Part shown: in pieces, positions 5,111 to 23,438 of the stretch | Position numbering within the stretch: position 1 is the stretch's first letter | Layout of the letters: the number at the start of each line of letters is the position of its first letter | Assembly (NCBI GenBank): GCA_004524535.1 | Contig: SDNY01000012.1 | Location: 1-44,788 of the forward strand | DNA length: 44,788 bases | From: Promethearchaeota archaeon | Lineage (GTDB): Archaea; Asgardarchaeota; Lokiarchaeia; Sigyniarchaeales; SOKP01 | Reading direction: 5' to 3' | Notes under the pieces: generated by a model | Database searches by the model: none | Told to the model about the DNA's origin: nothing | What the model saw: the letters and a program-made list of their open reading frames with translations, nothing else | Made by a program: the position numbers and the translations under genes

Positions 5111-6118
5111 TTGAATCCAGAATTAATTACAATCGGCAGCTGTACCCTTGATGTTATCATAGAGATAGATGACATATTACGTTTTGAATTATTCGATAAA
5201 GATATAATAAAAAAATATACCGCTATTGAATATTCTCGAAAGTTGAATGTTAAAAGTGTAAGATTCGTACCAGGAGGGTCAGGCTCAAATATAGCAGCAA
5301 ACTGTTCAATGTTAGGATTAAATGCATGTTATATTGGAATTTTAGGAAATGACTTCTCTGCCACAATATGTTTAGACGATTTAAGGAAGAGAGCGGTAGA
5401 TTTATCTCAAGTAGTTCAAACTGATAAGGATTCTACTGCTTTATCAGTAATTTTAAAAACTCCTTGGGGTAAAGATCGAAGTATTCTAGCATATAAGGGT
5501 GCGAACAATTTATTAAAACCGTCTGATGTTAAACCAGAATTATTTGGTGAGGTTAAGGCTTTTGCATGGACTTCTTTAACATCCGATACTGGTTGTCAAG
5601 CAATAGAAAAAGCAATAAAACTTACAAAAGATCATGGCGGAAAGATTTTTGCGGCACCAAGTATGTCAATTATTAAAAATGCTACTAATTGGGCAAAAAC
5701 ATTAATTTCCCAATCGGATGTGGTATCAATGAATATGGAAGAAGCTCAAGAATTCACGGGAAAAAAGAAAAAAACTTTAATGATAAAAGATTTTATAGAT
5801 ATGGGTGTTAAGTTAATTTCTATAACGGATGGTCCAAATGGGAGCATAATCTCTGATGGTGATACAATTATAAACAGCAGCATCTACACGGGTGATGTAA
5901 ATGATACAACTGGAGCAGGAGATGCCTTCCTTAGTGGAATTCTAGTCTCTATTCTGAATAATTTTAGTTTAGAAAAAATATCTAAATTGGCTACTGCTAT
6001 GTCCTTTTTGGAGTGCAAGGAGATTGGTGTTAGAGAAGGACTCCCTAAGAGTCTACAAGAATTAGAAACTTTTGTAGATACAAATACCCTTAACCAAGTT
6101 ATTTCTAAAGTAGTTTAA
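5111..6118 (+). CDS. PfkB/ribokinase family carbohydrate kinase
   Basis: PGGSGSNIA N-terminal signature, NMEEA, and DTTGAGDAF C-terminal signature. Confidence 0.92.
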   Translation: MNPELITIGSCTLDVIIEIDDILRFELFDKDIIKKYTAIEYSRKLNVKSVRFVPGGSGSNIAANCSMLGLNACYIGILGNDFSATICLDDLRKRAVDLSQVVQTDKDSTALSVILKTPWGKDRSILAYKGANNLLKPSDVKPELFGEVKAFAWTSLTSDTGCQAIEKAIKLTKDHGGKIFAAPSMSIIKNATNWAKTLISQSDVVSMNMEEAQEFTGKKKKTLMIKDFIDMGVKLISITDGPNGSIISDGDTIINSSIYTGDVNDTTGAGDAFLSGILVSILNNFSLEKISKLATAMSFLECKEIGVREGLPKSLQELETFVDTNTLNQVISKVV

Positions 6119-6350: not shown

Positions 6351-7199
6351 TTAAATAAGTTTTAGGAAACCCGAAGCATCCGAAGTTTCACTAACATTAA
6401 CTTCAAAATAATATTTTAAAATATTAATTATAAAATTTAAGTAGGTTTTCTGTAATTTGAGATTAAACTTTTCTATTAGAAAATCAACGATTATCTTTAC
6501 ATCGAGTTTTTCAATTTGTTGTTCATTAGCATAATCTACAATGGATTTTGACAATTGATGTGATTTACGAATCTCGTTTTTTAACATAATATAGCTATAG
6601 GATAAATCATGCTCGGATAAAAAACTTTGAATAAAATATTTCTCCACCTTTAGTTTTTTATCATCTATAATCTTCTCAATATTATTTAGAATTTTATTAC
6701 CCTCGAATACCATGCAATCTTGATATTCTTTTTTATTTTTTTTGTAATCTTGGTTATTTACAATTTCAATTTCAGCTTTAAAAGCATCTCGAGTAATATA
6801 ATTAAAAAAATTGTGAATATGTTCATATAAAAATTCTTGATCGGAGACTAGTACAATTTTTTGCTTAGAGAAAATTGATTTGAGAACATAAGTAAGCAAT
6901 AATGCAGATAAATTAAGTTTAATTAAATCTAAATTAATTACTTCCTTAGAGGGAATTTTTTTCTCTTCAATTTCTTCAGACGGAGCGATATCTGGCAGGT
7001 CAATTTTAAAGTCAGCAATAAAATAATCCCTTACTTTAAGATTTCTATCAACATAAGCGATAAAAGTATGTTCGCATATTGTACCCTCTGGAATATTGAT
7101 CGCCAGTAGCCCCTTAGAAACATTTTTTAAATAATCTTCTGAAATTTCTATTTCTCCATTTGCGGAGCATGATGGACAACGTATTTTAACATGAGACAT
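6351..7199 (-). CDS. Hypothetical protein: N-terminal Zn-ribbon-like domain (CPxC...CxH) plus possible DENN-like core
   Basis: CPSC...CEHTFIAYVDRNLKVR, then LKSIFSKQKIVLVSD resembling the start of a DENN core (by eye only). Confidence 0.55.
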   Translation of the reverse strand: MSHVKIRCPSCSANGEIEISEDYLKNVSKGLLAINIPEGTICEHTFIAYVDRNLKVRDYFIADFKIDLPDIAPSEEIEEKKIPSKEVINLDLIKLNLSALLLTYVLKSIFSKQKIVLVSDQEFLYEHIHNFFNYITRDAFKAEIEIVNNQDYKKNKKEYQDCMVFEGNKILNNIEKIIDDKKLKVEKYFIQSFLSEHDLSYSYIMLKNEIRKSHQLSKSIVDYANEQQIEKLDVKIIVDFLIEKFNLKLQKTYLNFIINILKYYFEVNVSETSDASGFLKLI

Positions 7200-7377: not shown

Positions 7378-7857
7378 CTAATATCTTTGAATTTTTGCAT
7401 AGTGTCTTTCGATTATATTTGCAATAAAGATGCATGCAATAGCCCCCAAGACTTCAGCTATAACAAATGAATAAATATTGTTAAACCATATAATACTAAT
7501 AAAATAAGAAGGAAAGAAAAAAACGCTAAAAATCGCGAAAATAATTAATAGTGGTCTTACAACAGGAGCTTCGAGGAGCTTTCTAAATCTAACTTTTTCA
7601 ATTATCCTTTTAGCAAATCCACGTTTAATTTTCCTACTTCGTTGCACTTGGGCATAACTTTCATATATAATTATAGAGCAGTAAAATAATGCGAATATAA
7701 CCCCTATTGGGATTAAAATAATTACAAGATAATTTCCTATACTTAGAAAATATTGTGCAATAAAAATATAAAAAGCTTGAAAAATTGCACAGAGACCAAA
7801 GAGCATTAAAGCTATGCCAAAATATTCACGCTTAACCCATCGAATTTTTAAAGGCAT
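7378..7857 (-). CDS. Hypothetical integral membrane protein (about 4 TM)
   Basis: Two pairs of hydrophobic helices separated by a basic loop; immediately downstream of tRNA-Val. Confidence 0.7.
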   Translation of the reverse strand: MPLKIRWVKREYFGIALMLFGLCAIFQAFYIFIAQYFLSIGNYLVIILIPIGVIFALFYCSIIIYESYAQVQRSRKIKRGFAKRIIEKVRFRKLLEAPVVRPLLIIFAIFSVFFFPSYFISIIWFNNIYSFVIAEVLGAIACIFIANIIERHYAKIQRY

Positions 7858-7895
7858 TTCTTCATTATCCTGAGTTAATTATTATTGTATTTAAA

Positions 7896-7969
7896 TGGGC
7901 GCGGCGAGGTTTGAACTCGCGACCTTCCGCACGTCAAGCGGACGTCATACCGGGCTAGACCACGCGCCC
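7896..7969 (-). tRNA. tRNA-Val(GAC), intronless
   Basis: Reverse complement GGGCGCG...TCCGC-TTGACGT-GCGGA...GCGAG-TTCAAAC-CTCGC-CGCGCCC-A folds into a full cloverleaf; CCA not encoded. Confidence 0.95.
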
Positions 7970-8276
7970 AAAATTAAAAAATTATTCTTAAACTCTAATA
8001 TCTCTTTAAGATGTATGTGAATAATATTACTATAAAAGAATTATTCTCTAAATATTAAATTTATTGATTGTAAATCATATTTTCAGAAAATAACCTCTTA
8101 TATGATTCATATAATCTCCTTTCTTAAAATGCGATTTCTATAAAATTTTTATCTTAAAAATGTATATAATAGAATTATAACATTTTATATAGTAAAAATT
8201 CCCAATTTATATTAAAATAAAAAAAAGGATTGGTGTTTTTATAATTTCCAAATCGGAACTTACTAAAAAAAAAAAC

Positions 8277-8534
8277 ATGAAAAAGGCTATTATAATAATT
8301 GCCGTTGTTGCTCTTTTAACGACTTTTTCAATAACGATAATTATTATTTATTTAAATAGTCAGTATTATGAAGGTGATGGCAAAGATTCAGATGACGATG
8401 ACAATAGCGCAGATGCCAGTGATTCTGGAGGAGGAGGCTGAGGATGTATTATCTTTAAGCAAGGCTTCTCAAGTTATAACCTCAATAAAATATACGGCAT
8501 TAAATTAATACAAATCCAATACCAAGTATTTTAA
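8277..8534 (+). CDS. Candidate small membrane-anchored selenoprotein (85 aa if TGA 8439-8441 is Sec; 54 aa if it is a stop)
   Basis: MKKAIIIIAVVALLTTFSITIIIIYLNSQYYEGDGKDSDDDDNSADASDSGGGG(TGA)GCIIFKQGFSSYNLNKIYGIKLIQIQYQVF*; SECIS-like hairpin just downstream; absent from the ORF track. Confidence 0.68.
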
Positions 8535-8563
8535 AAGAATAACCAAAAATCGCCCCGAATTGA

Positions 8564-8600
8564 ATGATTCTTACGAGAAAAAATGGAGTCGTAAGAGGAC
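8564..8600 (+). promoter_or_regulatory. Eukaryote-type SECIS-like element (3' UTR)
   Basis: ATGA-T-TCTTACGA-[GAAAAAATGGAG]-TCGTAAGA-G-GA-C: UGAN/NGAN tandem G.A core, perfect 8-bp stem, apical A-run. Confidence 0.72.
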
Positions 8601-8658
8601 TGACCTTTGCGAAGGTATCGGTGAAATAAAAATAAAAAATAAAAAATAAATTATAGAT

Positions 8659-9879
8659 CTATAATTTTTTTTCTCTTAACGCTCGAATCATAGGCAAGTC
8701 ATTTCCAGATAGAATTTCGAGCATGGCTCCACCTGCTGTAGATATGAATGAAACTTGATCATCTTTGCCAGACATTGCAGCCGCCGCTCCCATTTCCCCT
8801 CCGCCTATTATGGTTAAAGCTCCTTTTTTAGTGGCTTCCACCATTGCATCAACCATATCCATGGTAGCAGCTCTAAACACTTCTTTTTCAAATATGCCAG
8901 GAGGTCCATTTGCTACTATTGTTTTACATTTTAATATTACATCTTTAAAAGTTTCTACTGTTTTAGGTCCAATGTCCCCAGTGGTTGTATTTGCTGTTCC
9001 AGCTTCATCAATTGTAATCGCTTTTCTATTCCCATTATCATCAATAATTAAATCTTCAGGTAAGATTATCTTGTCTTTGTATTTATTATACGTTTCAATA
9101 ATCATATCCTTATTTGCTTCCAGATCCTTTGCCGTAATTTTAAGGTTAATCTCTCCCATGTCTTTACCTAACGCTTCAAAGATTAAGATAGCTGTTAATC
9201 CTGAGCATAAAGCATAATCTAATTTGTCATTGTCAAAATTGTATTTCATAGCTTTAAATTTATCGATTGCTTTTGCCCCTCCGATAAGCATCGCCATAGG
9301 TTTATCAGGTGCTTCCACTATTTTTTTTAAATTGTCTAATTCCTTATCAGTTATTGGGCCAGCTAGCATCTTAGGCCAACCTACGATAGATGCATGTGCT
9401 CGATGTGCTGCTCCAAAAGCATCCACTATAGCATAATCCACCAGGGGAAACAATGTCTTTATCAAATCAGTATTCTCTGCTTCGGAAAAATCTTTATATC
9501 CCTTCATTTCAGCTTCATATTTACGTATATTATTCAGTACTAAGACTTCTCCTGGTTTAAGATCTTTTATTGCATTGACAGCATCTTCACCATAAATATC
9601 CTTGACAAATTTTACGGGTTTACCAAGGAGTTTTTCGATTTCTTTAGCATGAATATCTAAATCGGTGAAATCATCCATACCTGGTCTTGATTGGTGAGCC
9701 ATAATAATTACAGCACTCTCATTGTAAATATCCTTCAAAAATGGAACCAATACTTCAATTCGAGGGGATTTGGTAATTTGCATCTTTTCTACATCTATGT
9801 TGGAATTGATATCCACCCGCATTATAAGCTTTTTTTTTTTTAAATCGACATCTTTATAGGATGTATAATCAATCTTCAT
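8659..9879 (-). CDS. pgk: Phosphoglycerate kinase
   Basis: RVDINS, AHQSRPG, DAFGAAHRAHAS, IGGAK, NGPPGIFE and STAGGA motifs. Confidence 0.95.
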   Translation of the reverse strand: MKIDYTSYKDVDLKKKKLIMRVDINSNIDVEKMQITKSPRIEVLVPFLKDIYNESAVIIMAHQSRPGMDDFTDLDIHAKEIEKLLGKPVKFVKDIYGEDAVNAIKDLKPGEVLVLNNIRKYEAEMKGYKDFSEAENTDLIKTLFPLVDYAIVDAFGAAHRAHASIVGWPKMLAGPITDKELDNLKKIVEAPDKPMAMLIGGAKAIDKFKAMKYNFDNDKLDYALCSGLTAILIFEALGKDMGEINLKITAKDLEANKDMIIETYNKYKDKIILPEDLIIDDNGNRKAITIDEAGTANTTTGDIGPKTVETFKDVILKCKTIVANGPPGIFEKEVFRAATMDMVDAMVEATKKGALTIIGGGEMGAAAAMSGKDDQVSFISTAGGAMLEILSGNDLPMIRALREKKL

Positions 9880-19667: not shown

Positions 19668-20466
19668 TTGAGTCTTTTTCTGCCTTCAATTTTTTAATTT
19701 CTTCAACGATTAAGGGCAAGATTGTTCCAGTTTTATGATGAATTACAATTTCTGCTTTATTATCTAAATGTGTAGGTCTATCGTTTACGATTATTAATTT
19801 ACCCCCTTCACTTAAAGTATATGCCGGTAAATCACAAACAGGAGCAACTGAAAGTGAAGATCCAGCAATTAACATAACATCTGCTTTTTGCGCTAATGCC
19901 TGGGATTGATAGATTTCAAAAGTAGGTAGACCTTCTCCAAACAGAACAACTGATGGTTTTAATGGAGCAGTGCATATATCACATGTAGGAGGATAACTTT
20001 TTTCTTTTTTCAATTTTTGTAGTACTTGTTTTTTTGTGTATGATGCTCTACATCCGAAACAATTAAATCGATTAATATTTCCATGAACCTCATATACCAA
20101 TACGGACCCAGCTTTCTGGTGTAATTCATCAATATTTTGAGTGATTACTGCTTTAAGAAGATCCATATCCTCCAGTTCAGCGAGCGCAATATGACCAGGA
20201 TTAGGATTTGCTGTGAATAATTTAGGTGCTACTTTTTCAGCCATTTGCCAAAATTTCTGAGGGTCACGTATAAAAGATTTTATGTTTCCATATATCTCGG
20301 GTTTGTATTTTTCCCATATTCCATGATCACCTCTAAAATCGGGTATTCCTGATTCTGTCGATATACCCGCTCCCGTCAATACGACGGCACTTTTAGATTT
20401 AAAAAGAAGTTCCGCAGCTTTGTGAATTTTCTCCCTTTGAGTATGTTTTAAAATTTTTGCCCCCAT
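19660..20466 (-). CDS. cobB: Sir2 family NAD-dependent protein deacylase
   Basis: GAGISTESGIPDFRG, TQNIDELH, HGN, two CxxC, KPSVVLFGE, GSSLSVAP. Confidence 0.93.
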   Translation of the reverse strand: MGAKILKHTQREKIHKAAELLFKSKSAVVLTGAGISTESGIPDFRGDHGIWEKYKPEIYGNIKSFIRDPQKFWQMAEKVAPKLFTANPNPGHIALAELEDMDLLKAVITQNIDELHQKAGSVLVYEVHGNINRFNCFGCRASYTKKQVLQKLKKEKSYPPTCDICTAPLKPSVVLFGEGLPTFEIYQSQALAQKADVMLIAGSSLSVAPVCDLPAYTLSEGGKLIIVNDRPTHLDNKAEIVIHHKTGTILPLIVEEIKKLKAEKDSNV

Positions 20467-20744
20467 CTAAATCCAATTTTTTTTTATTATATTATTGCTT
20501 TTTAAAAAGACGTATCTCCAAATTCCTATTCGTATAAATTTATATCATTTTTCTTTTGTAAATGATATATTAAATCTTATTAATTTCTAAAATAATTGAA
20601 AATTAATATTTTTGATTAATTTTCATAAAAGATTAAAATATTCAATGATATTACTCTTTAAGAAGAAGCCTTAAAAAAATTTAACTTTTTTGTCCTTAAA
20701 TTACTTAAAATTAAGAGCTCTTATAAGTAAAAGGATTCTTACAC

Positions 20745-21647
20745 ATGACAAAAACACAAATAAGCTTCGGAATTGTCTTAAAAGATGAAATACTATATTG
20801 CTCGAACGAAGATAAATATAACTTCCTTGAAATAATTTTATTCGTTGAGAAACTTATTCGAAGTTTTAATCCTAAACAGACATGGCGGTTAAATAGTATT
20901 TATTTAAAAAGGGCTAAGGATAAAGAACGATTATTTATTCGACATGAGATTACTGAAACAAATAAAAACTTGTTCTTTATAGTGAGCGGGGCATATGAAG
21001 AAAACTCTCAAGAGATTCGAAAGATGTTAAAAAATTTTTTTGAAAAGGTGAATACTAATTATAATACTGGAGAGCTATTAGAAAAATCTTCAAAAAAACC
21101 AATATTTAAAGAAATTATTGACAATATTACTGATTTTTTATGGAATAAATATGAAATTCTTTTAGAACAGGAGGAAATAAAACAAGAAGTTGATCATGAA
21201 ACAACTAATAAAATATTATATGGAGGAATTTCAAGCCAAGGATTACCAATTATATCAAAATTGTTTGATCCAACTCTTTTAAATAATTTAGATAAAAAAA
21301 TAACCACTGAAAATATTGAATTATTTAATTCTAGTTTTTCAGCGCAATTAGCTACAATTGAAATGAATACATTAATACGGACTAACAAATATAAGATCAA
21401 ACAGATTCATATATTTGATTTAGAAGATAAGAAGAACAAAAAAATAATTTTATATGATAATATTGATAAAAACCATTTTTCTTTAACCATTTTTGCATCT
21501 GGGAATTTTTTTGAAATTAAAGATCTTATGAAGTTATTAAAATTCCAAATCTCTAAAGAATATATTTTACATAAAGAATTCTCAGGAGATATTAAAACAT
21601 ATAAATATTTAGACAATTATTTTTTAGGTTTAGATAGAGAATTTTAG
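20745..21647 (+). CDS. Hypothetical protein, possibly tandem longin-like domains
   Basis: Two beta-beta-alpha-beta-beta-beta-alpha-like units (FGIVLKDEILY...; ILYGGISSQGLPIIS...FSAQLATI). Confidence 0.45.
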   Translation: MTKTQISFGIVLKDEILYCSNEDKYNFLEIILFVEKLIRSFNPKQTWRLNSIYLKRAKDKERLFIRHEITETNKNLFFIVSGAYEENSQEIRKMLKNFFEKVNTNYNTGELLEKSSKKPIFKEIIDNITDFLWNKYEILLEQEEIKQEVDHETTNKILYGGISSQGLPIISKLFDPTLLNNLDKKITTENIELFNSSFSAQLATIEMNTLIRTNKYKIKQIHIFDLEDKKNKKIILYDNIDKNHFSLTIFASGNFFEIKDLMKLLKFQISKEYILHKEFSGDIKTYKYLDNYFLGLDREF

Positions 21648-21668
21648 TGAAAAAACAACTCTTATTAC

Positions 21669-23438
21669 TTAGGCATTCGCTTCGGCAGTACCCTGCTTCT
21701 TTTTCTGTTCCTCTTTTTTAAATTTACGCAACAAACGAGAAAATTTTAAAGGTGTATCTTGATAATCGAGTTCTGAAAGCGCTTGATCCTGATAAGCTTG
21801 TAAAAGCTTGTTGGAAAATTTTTGCCAATCTCGACAGATAGCAAGGGTATCAGCATCGTTTTTTAATAAGCTTTCATGAGACATTATTCGGAGAAACTCA
21901 GCAGCATAAGGTTCAATAACATCAGATTGAGCACCTGCTAGGAGATCTCGAGCAAAGTCATCAGCAGGATACCAATCTCTAACCCTTTGAAAATCACGAT
22001 GGATTTGGGTAAGTAAAACGTTGCGAGGGCCTTCCCAGAGCTCCATAATCATAGAATCACGATGCACGCGTGGAAATGATAAGAAATCTTCCATAATTCC
22101 ATGACCTCCAAAAAATGAGATTGCCATTCTTATCAAAGCTGGAGCTTCGTCGCATACGACAATCTTTTGCAGCATTACAAGTTCACGTAGCCTAAATCTT
22201 CGTTTACGTTCAGTTATATCTACAATTTTTTCCAAGTCTCTTAATCCCGCAATTAGTTCTTCACCAAAATGAATAAATTCAGAATAAACTTTAAATGCTC
22301 CTGCTGCGGATCTCATAGCTGCGTGATTTAAATCATTAATCTGATTTATCATTAAAGGAAACTTTGATACTAGAACTCCAAAGGCGGTTCTAAATTGAGC
22401 ATATAATGTAGCTTCACGAGCAACTCTCAATGCTCCACTTGCCATTGCTAATCCAATATCTAATCGTGATAATGACAGAACAATCCCAACAATGTCAGCT
22501 AATCCTTTTTCAAGAGGCCCTATAGGATAGGCAACAGCACCATTATATGTTATTTCTGCTGTTGGTAATTCTGCTGTTCCTAATTTTGGTTTAAGTCTAT
22601 CTATTGTATAGGAATTTCTTATTTCTTTCTCCTTATTTTTTGGTAACCAAGCTGGAACGACAAATACCGCAATTTTAGTGGATGTAGGAGTTCCTTTAGG
22701 TTTAGCTGTTACCACAGCATAATCTGTATGTATTGCTGAACAAAAAAATTTCTGTCCATAAATCCTCCAGCAATTCGAGATCCCATCAGGACCTTCAGCC
22801 TCCTCAAAAACGGCTTCGACGAGATTTGATGGAACATCACTACCTCCTTGAATTTCAGTAACAAATTGAGCTCCCATGCCATATTCACCACTACTATATT
22901 CGCCCGTGCCATTTCGAACATGTTCTAGAATTTTTAATGCTTCGGGATCTAACATATCTTCATATTGCTGCAGGAGCCAAACCATTCCATGGGTACAAAC
23001 TAGAGGACAGATTACACCGAATTCCGAATTTTGAGATAATAAAAACAATTTCGCAAACCTACTCCATGGACTATTCCTATTTGGATCGAACAATCCAAGA
23101 CTGAATATCTCTTTTTCTAAAATTTCAGTTTCAGCACATCGCTCTATTCTGTCAATTCTATGATTATGAGCATCGTAATGTTTTATTTGAGTAACTTTTA
23201 TTCGATTTTCAAGATCATTACCTTTATCAGCTAAATCCCTAAATCTAAAAGACACATAATCAGAAAGAGCAAGAAGTTCTTTATTTATTTTTTCAAATTC
23301 ATCTCCAGTATACTTTTTAACTAAAGCTTGGAAAAATTCGTCATCTTTATAATAATTAAATTGATTTCTGACAAATAGATAATCGTCAAAAGAGTAGGGA
23401 TTATTTCTATTTCCTTCCTCATTAATTTGGGCGCACAT
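21669..23438 (-). CDS. Acyl-CoA dehydrogenase family protein (AidB-like)
   Basis: CPLVCT, AQFVTEIQGGSDV, GQKFFCS, RLKPKLGT, RTAFG, GGHGIMED, ELWEGPRNV. Confidence 0.9.
   Translation of the reverse strand: MCAQINEEGNRNNPYSFDDYLFVRNQFNYYKDDEFFQALVKKYTGDEFEKINKELLALSDYVSFRFRDLADKGNDLENRIKVTQIKHYDAHNHRIDRIERCAETEILEKEIFSLGLFDPNRNSPWSRFAKLFLLSQNSEFGVICPLVCTHGMVWLLQQYEDMLDPEALKILEHVRNGTGEYSSGEYGMGAQFVTEIQGGSDVPSNLVEAVFEEAEGPDGISNCWRIYGQKFFCSAIHTDYAVVTAKPKGTPTSTKIAVFVVPAWLPKNKEKEIRNSYTIDRLKPKLGTAELPTAEITYNGAVAYPIGPLEKGLADIVGIVLSLSRLDIGLAMASGALRVAREATLYAQFRTAFGVLVSKFPLMINQINDLNHAAMRSAAGAFKVYSEFIHFGEELIAGLRDLEKIVDITERKRRFRLRELVMLQKIVVCDEAPALIRMAISFFGGHGIMEDFLSFPRVHRDSMIMELWEGPRNVLLTQIHRDFQRVRDWYPADDFARDLLAGAQSDVIEPYAAEFLRIMSHESLLKNDADTLAICRDWQKFSNKLLQAYQDQALSELDYQDTPLKFSRLLRKFKKEEQKKKQGTAEANA

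Follow-up and report, generated by a model that had tools for sequence, protein, structure and literature searches.

Is the TGA triplet at positions 8439-8441 of contig SDNY01000012.1 the end of a short reading frame, or is it read as selenocysteine (Sec)? The question concerns a stretch of 44,788 nucleotides from a Promethearchaeota archaeon (assembly GCA_004524535.1), referred to here as the window, for which a first-pass annotation had proposed an unlisted gene at 8277-8534 encoding a membrane-tethered selenoprotein of 85 residues, possibly of a new family. We analysed this locus together with the genome that holds the window (G000; 3.66 Mb, 30% GC, 198 contigs, 99% complete) and the genomes of its relatives. 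The proposal stood up: we put the probability that 8277-8534 is a genuine gene for a Sec-decoded membrane protein, representing a new Asgard selenoprotein family, at roughly 0.8, on the evidence of a conserved TGA, a Sec insertion sequence (SECIS) downstream, the Sec machinery of the genome and the lack of a match in Pfam or NCBIfam. The parts of the gene are as follows.

8277-8534 (+), complete open reading frame (ORF) of the candidate selenoprotein: 85 codons with the predicted Sec at codon 55, then TAA
8286-8348 (+), single N-terminal transmembrane (TM) helix, predicted from hydropathy and AlphaFold2: residues 4-24, with Lys-Lys before
8349-8438 (+), acidic Ser/Gly-rich linker, probably disordered: residues 25-54, net charge -8, ending in GGGG
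8439-8441 (+), in-frame TGA, predicted to be read as Sec55; same column in 5 of 5 genomic orthologs
8442-8531 (+), post-Sec tail, 30 codons overall: Gly56-Cys57, a hydrophobic stretch, then poorly conserved residues
8532-8534 (+), TAA stop codon, read directly from the sequence

The frame opens with ATG at 8277, and MKK is followed by 21 hydrophobic residues (amino acids 4-24; about 23 had been counted at first) with a mean Kyte-Doolittle hydropathy of 2.94. The linker comprises 30 residues rich in D, S, G and N, and its final codons, GGA GGA GGA GGC, run into the TGA, which directly precedes GGA TGT (Gly-Cys), just as the first-pass annotation had described. Beyond the TGA the frame is open for exactly 30 codons, Gly-Cys and 28 more, and is closed by the TAA. 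The ORF list made with translation table 11 contains the 54-residue form only (8277..8441). An ORF in an alternative frame, 8368-8508, was considered as a gene and dropped, no conservation having been seen for it.

AlphaFold2, run on a 13-row alignment, returned a helix over residues 2-35, with block-mean predicted local distance difference test (pLDDT) values of 85-93 over residues 1-20; the mean pLDDT was 60, and no fold was predicted besides the TM helix. Across 12 family members, the TM segment is 20-23 residues long with a hydropathy of about 2.9, the linker is 23-35 residues long (mostly 28-31) with a net charge of -5 to -16, and the tail beyond Sec measures 11-31 residues. The N-terminal flank of the TM segment is net positive and the C-terminal flank net negative (-2 to -7) in ten of the 12, the remaining two having no N-terminal flank and a net-zero one, respectively. 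No Pfam family reached its cut-off, scans of five members at E values up to 10 giving sub-threshold TM and low-complexity matches only, and no NCBIfam family was above cut-off for the window protein. Nor did Pfam, NCBIfam or AlphaFold2 indicate a thioredoxin-like domain around the U-x(1-2)-C motif (U, Sec).

In a six-frame search of 60 relatives, we recovered orthologs from four of the eight other genomes of the genus (G008, G005, G007 and G004; five of nine with G000). At the protein level they are between 28-30% and 86-88% identical to the window ORF, and in all four a single TM helix follows a basic N-terminus, and an acidic linker leads to a Gly run (reduced to one Gly in G004), U-G-C and a hydrophobic stretch. 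Each of these four has TGA, not TAA or TAG, at the Sec column. The two codons past it are GGA or GGT and then TGT or TGC, with synonymous third-base changes only across the five loci, and frame 0 is open for 24-30 codons beyond the TGA in all five, at a GC content of 20-32%; the +1 and +2 frames contain 1-5 stops each in ten of ten cases. Coding conservation past the TGA, which the first-pass annotation had named as a check, is thus seen in the synonymous Gly-Cys codons, in the hydrophobic stretch and in the single open frame, and is weak in the distal tail. The hydrophobic motif past Gly-Cys is common to distant metagenomic members, and Gly-Cys itself is nearly invariant.

The stop codons of the orthologs lie 13-41 nt before the SECIS core, which itself lies 93-125 nt past the TGA. 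Between G000 and G008, the part before the TGA shows five synonymous and five non-synonymous changes, and the linker differs by an indel of 18 nt, in frame. Strain variants were followed in contigs from four DNA runs, which gave partial cover (X3, an upstream piece only; X5, none). Contigs of two other studies that cover TGA-GGA-TGT keep this stretch unchanged (X2 record 3; X4 records 10 and 11); one X4 contig has an in-frame 12-nt insertion in the acidic linker, and the few strain substitutions affect the linker, codon 74 and the interval from the stop to the SECIS.

A SECIS-like hairpin had been noted downstream of the ORF, along with the use of eukaryote-like 3' elements by Lokiarchaeota. 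It is present, beginning 12 nt past the TAA stop, and the features of this region are listed below.

8546-8630 (+), Loki-type, eukaryote-like SECIS, identified by the covariance model R1 (51.2 bits), covariation and agreement with the lokiSECIS definition
8564-8567, 8568-8576/8589-8597 and 8598-8599 (+), AUGA, 9-bp stem and GA of the SECIS, read directly
8577-8588, 8603-8616 and about 8555-8558/8618-8621 (+), apical loop, side hairpin and closing stem of the SECIS
8665-8672 (+), run of 8 T, read directly; a possible archaeal transcription stop

The apical loop is 12 nt long (G, six A, UGGAG), and the AUGA core is located 125 nt past the UGA. Oligo-T termination, of which the run at 8665-8672 may be an instance, occurs in archaea.

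Model R1 was built from the 3' regions of SelD and two HdrA-VhuD loci of G000, with the candidate left out. In a scan of the 3.66-Mb genome, the candidate (C37:8546-8630) was the best non-seed match, with an E value of 4.5e-8; the seeds scored 83-101 bits, an element on contig C103 46.2, that of VhuU 44 and that of a Prx-like gene 32, and the next match beyond those seven had an E value of 0.6. All seven matches with E < 0.01 lie directly downstream of ORFs with an in-frame TGA; this census scored 150 of about 2,400 first-look candidates and may be incomplete. The layout of the candidate hairpin follows, almost motif for motif, that of the SelD 3' region in G000, and the same layout is found 3' of the two HdrA-VhuD operons (VhuD with two TGAs) and of the Prx-like gene.

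R1 identified exactly one SECIS in each of 16 loci (five orthologs, five look-alike genes of other genera and six G000 elements). As a control we used 39 loci with weak TM/acidic protein matches: 34 were without an R1 match at E values up to 1, there was one match of 16.9 bits (E 0.67), and the other five were further selenoprotein genes. In an alignment of the 16 elements, 92% of the cells are paired and all 19 pairs have changed on both sides; none of 500 shuffles scored as high, and slid controls paired at 37-50% only. Compensatory changes in the stem are also visible by eye in the ortholog comparison. Plain minimum free energy folding of 8530-8660 was no better than shuffles (z = -0.95), and a loose regular-expression descriptor was unspecific (134 matches versus 90 in shuffled sequence) and served for candidate-spotting only. 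Rfam at gathering score matched only the tRNA-Val in the window, and a search of 8200-8720 at E values up to 10 returned noise and no SECIS family; the missing match is expected because standard SECIS models miss lokiSECIS (PMC4989117, available sections). In the same sections, lokiSECIS is defined by AUGA, a 9-bp stem, a loop of about 11 nt with adenines first and (A)G last, and GA, near the end of the coding sequence (PMC4989117). The hairpin fits this definition, with a loop of 12 nt here and of 11 nt in G005, G007 and G004; the element at 8546-8630 is a SECIS of lokiSECIS type. A role in serving the neighbouring phosphoglycerate kinase gene (pgk) is excluded, since pgk is on the opposite strand and its ORF is intact without a TGA.

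The Sec machinery that such a gene would draw on was found in G000: tRNA-Sec, SepSecS (484.8 bits), SelB/EFSec (245.6 bits, 3.3 kb from SepSecS), a SelD that itself carries an in-frame TGA, and a full-length PSTK-like gene whose 144 bits are below the curated cut-off. The Rfam model RF01852 gave no tRNA-Sec over its cut-off in G000 or in nine genomes of the genus, and ARAGORN gave none in G000. A candidate in G008 (L087; 44.2 bits), located 77 nt upstream of SepSecS, placed the G000 gene by BLAST at C188:21782-21896(-), adjoining SepSecS (20404-21705). Its anticodon loop reads C-U-U-C-A-A-A (UCA anticodon). The G000 gene was missed by both programs because an insertion of about 31 nt, probably a non-canonical intron, splits it in the T-arm region; the G008 copy is uninterrupted. 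More generally, ARAGORN reported only 9-12 tRNA genes in G000 despite its 3.66 Mb and 99% completeness, and most of its other tRNA genes are presumably intron-split or unassembled.

To place the protein in a wider family, we searched protein libraries and related genomes. Word-based searching of 5.8 billion proteins yielded two matches, P0003, the NCBI record of the G008 product (48 aa, ending at the TGA), and P0002, a metagenome protein of 103 aa in which W occupies the Sec column. From 1.84 billion representative proteins, a HMMER profile search retrieved 13, of which five end exactly at the Gly run, seven have W at the Sec column and one (255 aa) looks unrelated. The W-type matches read G-G-G-W-G-C or close variants, with one G-W-G-F and one S-W-T-P-T-N-C, and we infer that the W represents a TGA called under a TGA=Trp code. 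When 160 genomes of the class and 399 genomes of the phylum were searched, strong matches came only from the five genomes of the genus. Two genomes of other genera have related arrangements: G017 has a TM segment, an acidic linker and S-G-G-G-U-A-M, cut by the contig end, and G012 has a TM segment, an acidic linker and D-G-G-U beside pgk, with its own SECIS. Over 80 pgk loci of related genomes, R1 found a SECIS in the corresponding slot only at the four known orthologs, and an ORF screen of the 80 slots yielded nothing new of the TM-acidic architecture and no Cys version. One other match in a pgk slot, L132, was rejected as an unrelated ORF with two acidic residues past its hydrophobic stretch.

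Several results weigh against the reading as a functional selenoprotein or against parts of it. No Cys occurs at the Sec column in the five genomic orthologs, the two word-based matches or the 13 profile matches, and no Cys homologue was found in the 160 genomes of the class, the 399 of the phylum or the pgk-adjacent slots; the exchange of TGA for a Cys codon, which supports a selenoprotein assignment and is no requirement for it, was thus not seen in the GGG-U-G-C family; it had been among the checks named in the first-pass annotation. The distribution is narrow (five of nine genomes of the genus, four of 80 related pgk loci, five strong matches among 399 genomes of the phylum). The U-x-C redox motif proposed at the outset is frequent without being universal, the Cys beside Sec being absent in P0016 (U-G-F), G017 (U-A-M) and G012 (U-S-T). 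The alignment used for the covariation counts was fitted to the R1 model. In G005 a second TGA, which must act as a stop, closes the ORF 15 nt ahead of the SECIS core. Over the 26 post-TGA codons shared by G000 and G008 there are five amino-acid changes and no purely synonymous one, for which reason the tail beyond roughly 8 residues past Sec appears weakly constrained; the pLDDT falls below 50 from residue 46. As for a redox role, no CcdA-type gene was detected in G000 with two queries: the best score for PF02683 was 18.2 bits, below cut-off, and the protein from the L065 locus gave nothing.

In the mechanism that we propose, the UGA at 8439-8441 would be recoded to Sec at codon 55 under the direction of the 3' Loki-type SECIS, with SelB inserting Sec from Sec-tRNA-Sec that is supplied via the PSTK-like protein, SepSecS and SelD. 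The gene is predicted to be monocistronic, and its product would be an 85-residue single-pass type II membrane protein with a short basic N-terminus. The positive-inside rule, an established principle of membrane topology, would place the N-terminus in the cytoplasm and the Sec arm outside. The acidic, probably extended tether would then hold the Gly-flanked Sec-Gly-Cys about 30 residues from the membrane, at the cell surface, with a short hydrophobic or amphipathic tail behind it, and the Sec/Cys pair could cycle reversibly between the selenol/thiol and selenenylsulfide forms. That the protein is a tethered minimal thiol-disulfide (redox) centre outside the cell is a tentative suggestion to which we give somewhat short of even odds; CcdA is not detectable in G000 and the neighbouring Cys is absent in some relatives, and for these reasons the redox couple is no more than a tentative reading.

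The main functional alternative, a good deal less probable, retains a genuine selenoprotein and has the Sec site, with or without the Cys, bind or hand over a soft metal, metalloid or selenium on the polyacidic arm, as in trafficking or detoxification of Ni, Cu, Hg, As or Se at the cell surface. A linker net charge of -5 to -16 in the 12 members would suit the capture of cations, the neighbouring Cys is dispensable in the U-G-F, U-A-M and U-S-T members, and a reductant supplier of the CcdA type is not detectable in G000. However, the gene has tRNA-Val and pgk for neighbours and no metal-transport or resistance genes beside it, and most members keep Sec and Cys at a spacing of 1-3 residues, which is typical of selenenylsulfide chemistry. 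Were the TGA instead an ordinary stop, the product would be a 54-aa TM-acidic peptide, and the SECIS-like structure a relic or an element with another role, such as a K-turn protein site or a transcript stabiliser. Gene callers do end there (P0003, P0004, P0010 and others), and the tail past the TGA is fast-evolving and lacks a confidently predicted fold, but the only changes in the Gly-Cys codons are synonymous, frame 0 stays open over 24-30 codons in five of five lineages against 1-5 stops in the other frames, the hydrophobic motif past Gly-Cys extends to distant metagenomic members, and every R1 match in G000 at E < 0.01 follows a TGA-containing ORF; we therefore consider an ordinary stop very unlikely.

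A slightly smaller chance still is given to a young, lineage-restricted gene in which a SECIS was captured or duplicated beside a small membrane ORF; on this account Sec may well be incorporated into a protein with little or no selected function. This would account for the narrow distribution, the weakly constrained tail and the lack of an ORF of the TM-acidic architecture beside pgk in the other related genomes that were surveyed; yet the architecture, the linker length (about 28-31 aa in most members) and G-G-G-U-G-C persist down to 28-40% identity within the genus and also across 12 or more metagenomic clusters at 50% identity, and a UGA/SECIS pair is costly to maintain. The least probable of the accounts considered is a precursor, the TM segment and linker serving as anchor or leader from which a Sec-containing C-terminal peptide is freed by cleavage at the Gly run. 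An invariant Gly run directly before Sec and a short, variable tail would fit such processing, but no gene for a peptidase, a transporter or a modification enzyme lies nearby, and a TM segment of 20-23 aa with a hydropathy of about 2.9 looks like a stable anchor. The reading that we prefer is thus a Sec-decoded membrane protein, with redox chemistry as the tentative function.

Similar genes are present in a sister genus, g11. The products in this look-alike group have a basic N-terminus, a TM helix, a poly-Asp linker and a Cys-x(1-3)-Sec motif, which reads C-F-U in L064, L070, L077, L084 and L086, C-K-R-U in L065, C-D-I-F-U in L066 and C-P-P-U in L075, and each gene has a SECIS that overlaps or abuts the end of the ORF. 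The 40 residues past Sec are well conserved in the C-F-U subgroup. L065 and L066 adjoin a gene of the CcdA/DsbD_TM type (28.5 bits versus a cut-off of 27.1; the copies are 70% identical), which can be taken as a hint of an extracytoplasmic redox role. A Cys form of the C-x-U type was observed in G086 (L062): it reads D-D-D-D-G-C-N-C, with TGT where its relatives have TGA, and its ORF reads through a retained SECIS (31.8 bits) and contains a duplicated segment of 10 residues. Either a recent change from Sec to Cys or an artefact of the assembly could explain it.

Other candidate genes came up in the same scans. On contig C103, at about 8875-9500 (-) (L020, L049), an ORF downstream of one that by eye looks like a methyltransferase gene ends in D-S-G-C-TGA-TGA and continues for 33 more codons to a stop just before the SECIS of 46.2 bits in R1. 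The ortholog in G001 (L102) keeps both TGAs and the post-TGA sequence (D-V-G-C-U-U), and the ORF looks like an unlisted selenoprotein candidate in which two Sec residues are adjacent. Another SECIS-like element, nearly identical to the first and 1.3 kb downstream of it, is located at about 7590-7660 (-) of C103 (L020); the gene that precedes it is Cys-rich (C-G-F-C-G-T-C-G), closes with TAA and lacks an in-frame TGA, which makes the element an orphan or shared SECIS. In G001 (L095) and G003 (L105), a small zinc-ribbon-like ORF with two C-x-x-C pairs ends in K-TGA-TAA. Some 100 nt further downstream comes a SECIS (52 and 44 bits), and then a Prx-like gene; the zinc-ribbon-like ORF could have a C-terminal Sec. 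The Prx-like selenoprotein of G000 (C36, about 5650-6100 (-)) has the motif S-D-S-U-T-M-A-F-C, and its SECIS, which scores lowest among the known elements (32 bits), differs from the others in a longer 5' internal loop.

The flanks of the window gene are occupied by the following neighbours.

8659-9879 (-), pgk, phosphoglycerate kinase, the convergent neighbour; conserved synteny
7895-7970 (-), tRNA-Val(GAC), the upstream neighbour; Rfam match

By tblastn, pgk is beside the gene in G000, G008, G005, G004, G007 and G012, and the gene is convergent to pgk in all four orthologs. Upstream of the tRNA-Val are two ORFs with no Pfam match at E 0.001, one of 282 aa with an N-terminal C-x-x-C (6351-7199 (-)) and one of 159 aa with several hydrophobic segments (7378-7857 (-)).

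The Asgard selenoproteome has been charted by homology to known families, with seven families counted in Asgard archaea (Huang 2024, PMC11227280) and 11 in archaea according to a 2026 review (PMC13188914). In the available parts of these sources, all of the published Asgard and archaeal families are enzymes or thioredoxin-fold proteins, and those of Mariotti 2016 (PMC4989117), Sun 2021 and Valentin-Alvarado 2024 list HdrA, VhuD, VhuU, Prx-like and SPS only. Full-text searches of the literature on Asgard selenoproteins, supplementary tables aside, brought up no description of a protein such as the one proposed here, which as far as our searches show would be the first small membrane-anchored selenoprotein proposed for archaea.

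A search that starts from the SECIS can find selenoprotein families without homologues, such as the one proposed here, which surveys built on homology have passed over; since the scan also brought up the unlisted G-C-U-U and C-x-U candidates, the class may extend further. A membrane-anchored protein with no enzyme domain and apparently no Cys counterpart is unusual among selenoproteins and speaks for a role in which selenium itself is essential. The gene also raises the question of what a selenol does outside an Asgard cell. The compact natural pair of UGA and SECIS, 93-125 nt apart, also lends itself to the study of eukaryote-like SECIS function in archaea without SBP2. On a speculative and rather improbable extension, the gene would found a hitherto hidden class of mini-selenoproteins of Loki-type Asgard archaea, which cross the membrane once, depend obligately on Sec and carry a bare selenol on an acidic surface tether; with similarly low odds, this class would take in the GGG-U-G-C type, the C-x(1-3)-U types of the sister genera and possibly the G-C-U-U protein of C103. 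If so, eukaryotic membrane selenoproteins such as SelK and SelS would have in it a functional counterpart among archaea, and conceivably a forerunner; it could also serve as a surface redox contact in exchanges with partner cells, and homology-only surveys would systematically undercount Asgard selenoproteomes.

How does the protein compare with known systems? SelK and SelS combine a TM helix near the N-terminus with a disordered segment that contains Gly, and their only Sec is remote from the anchor, within the last few residues of a cytosolic tail that is basic or rich in Pro and Gly. The window protein resembles them in outline, since it too has a lone N-terminal helix, a disordered stretch with Gly and one distant Sec, but its Sec is trailed by 24-30 residues, its linker is acidic and its C-terminus is predicted to be outside; none of the five members scanned matched a SelK or SelS family in Pfam at cut-off, even with E values up to 10 admitted, and the protein does not belong to that family. 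Membrane-anchored extracytoplasmic thiol-disulfide oxidoreductases, which are fed by CcdA/DsbD, offer a second parallel in the predicted N-in/C-out anchor with a redox-type chalcogen pair outside, and two of the C-x-U look-alike loci are beside a DsbD_TM-type gene; the window protein differs in having no thioredoxin fold, and two queries detected no CcdA homologue in G000.

Thioredoxin reductase has a C-terminal Gly-Cys-Sec-Gly arm. Among bacterial selenoproteins, the available sections of PMC2398784 list a 'Prx-like (UGC-containing)' and a 'UGSC-containing' family, the former with the very tripeptide U-G-C. The likeness of ours to these proteins, as to SelK and SelS, is one of function and not of family. 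They share with it a Sec and a Cys 1-2 residues apart in a Gly-flanked, mobile segment, but their motifs sit in soluble thioredoxin-fold or flavoenzyme domains, and the window protein is without such a domain. Compared with the seven Asgard and 11 archaeal families, as given in the parts of the sources at hand, it is unrelated, tiny and membrane-anchored, with no enzyme domain and no Cys homologue found. It is alike in decoding: the known lokiSECIS genes, SelD, HdrA-VhuD, VhuU and Prx-like (PMC4989117 and PMC11227280, available sections), have the same combination of an in-frame UGA and a 3' element near the end of the coding sequence, and the candidate scores between the known elements of G000 under a model that was trained on some of them.

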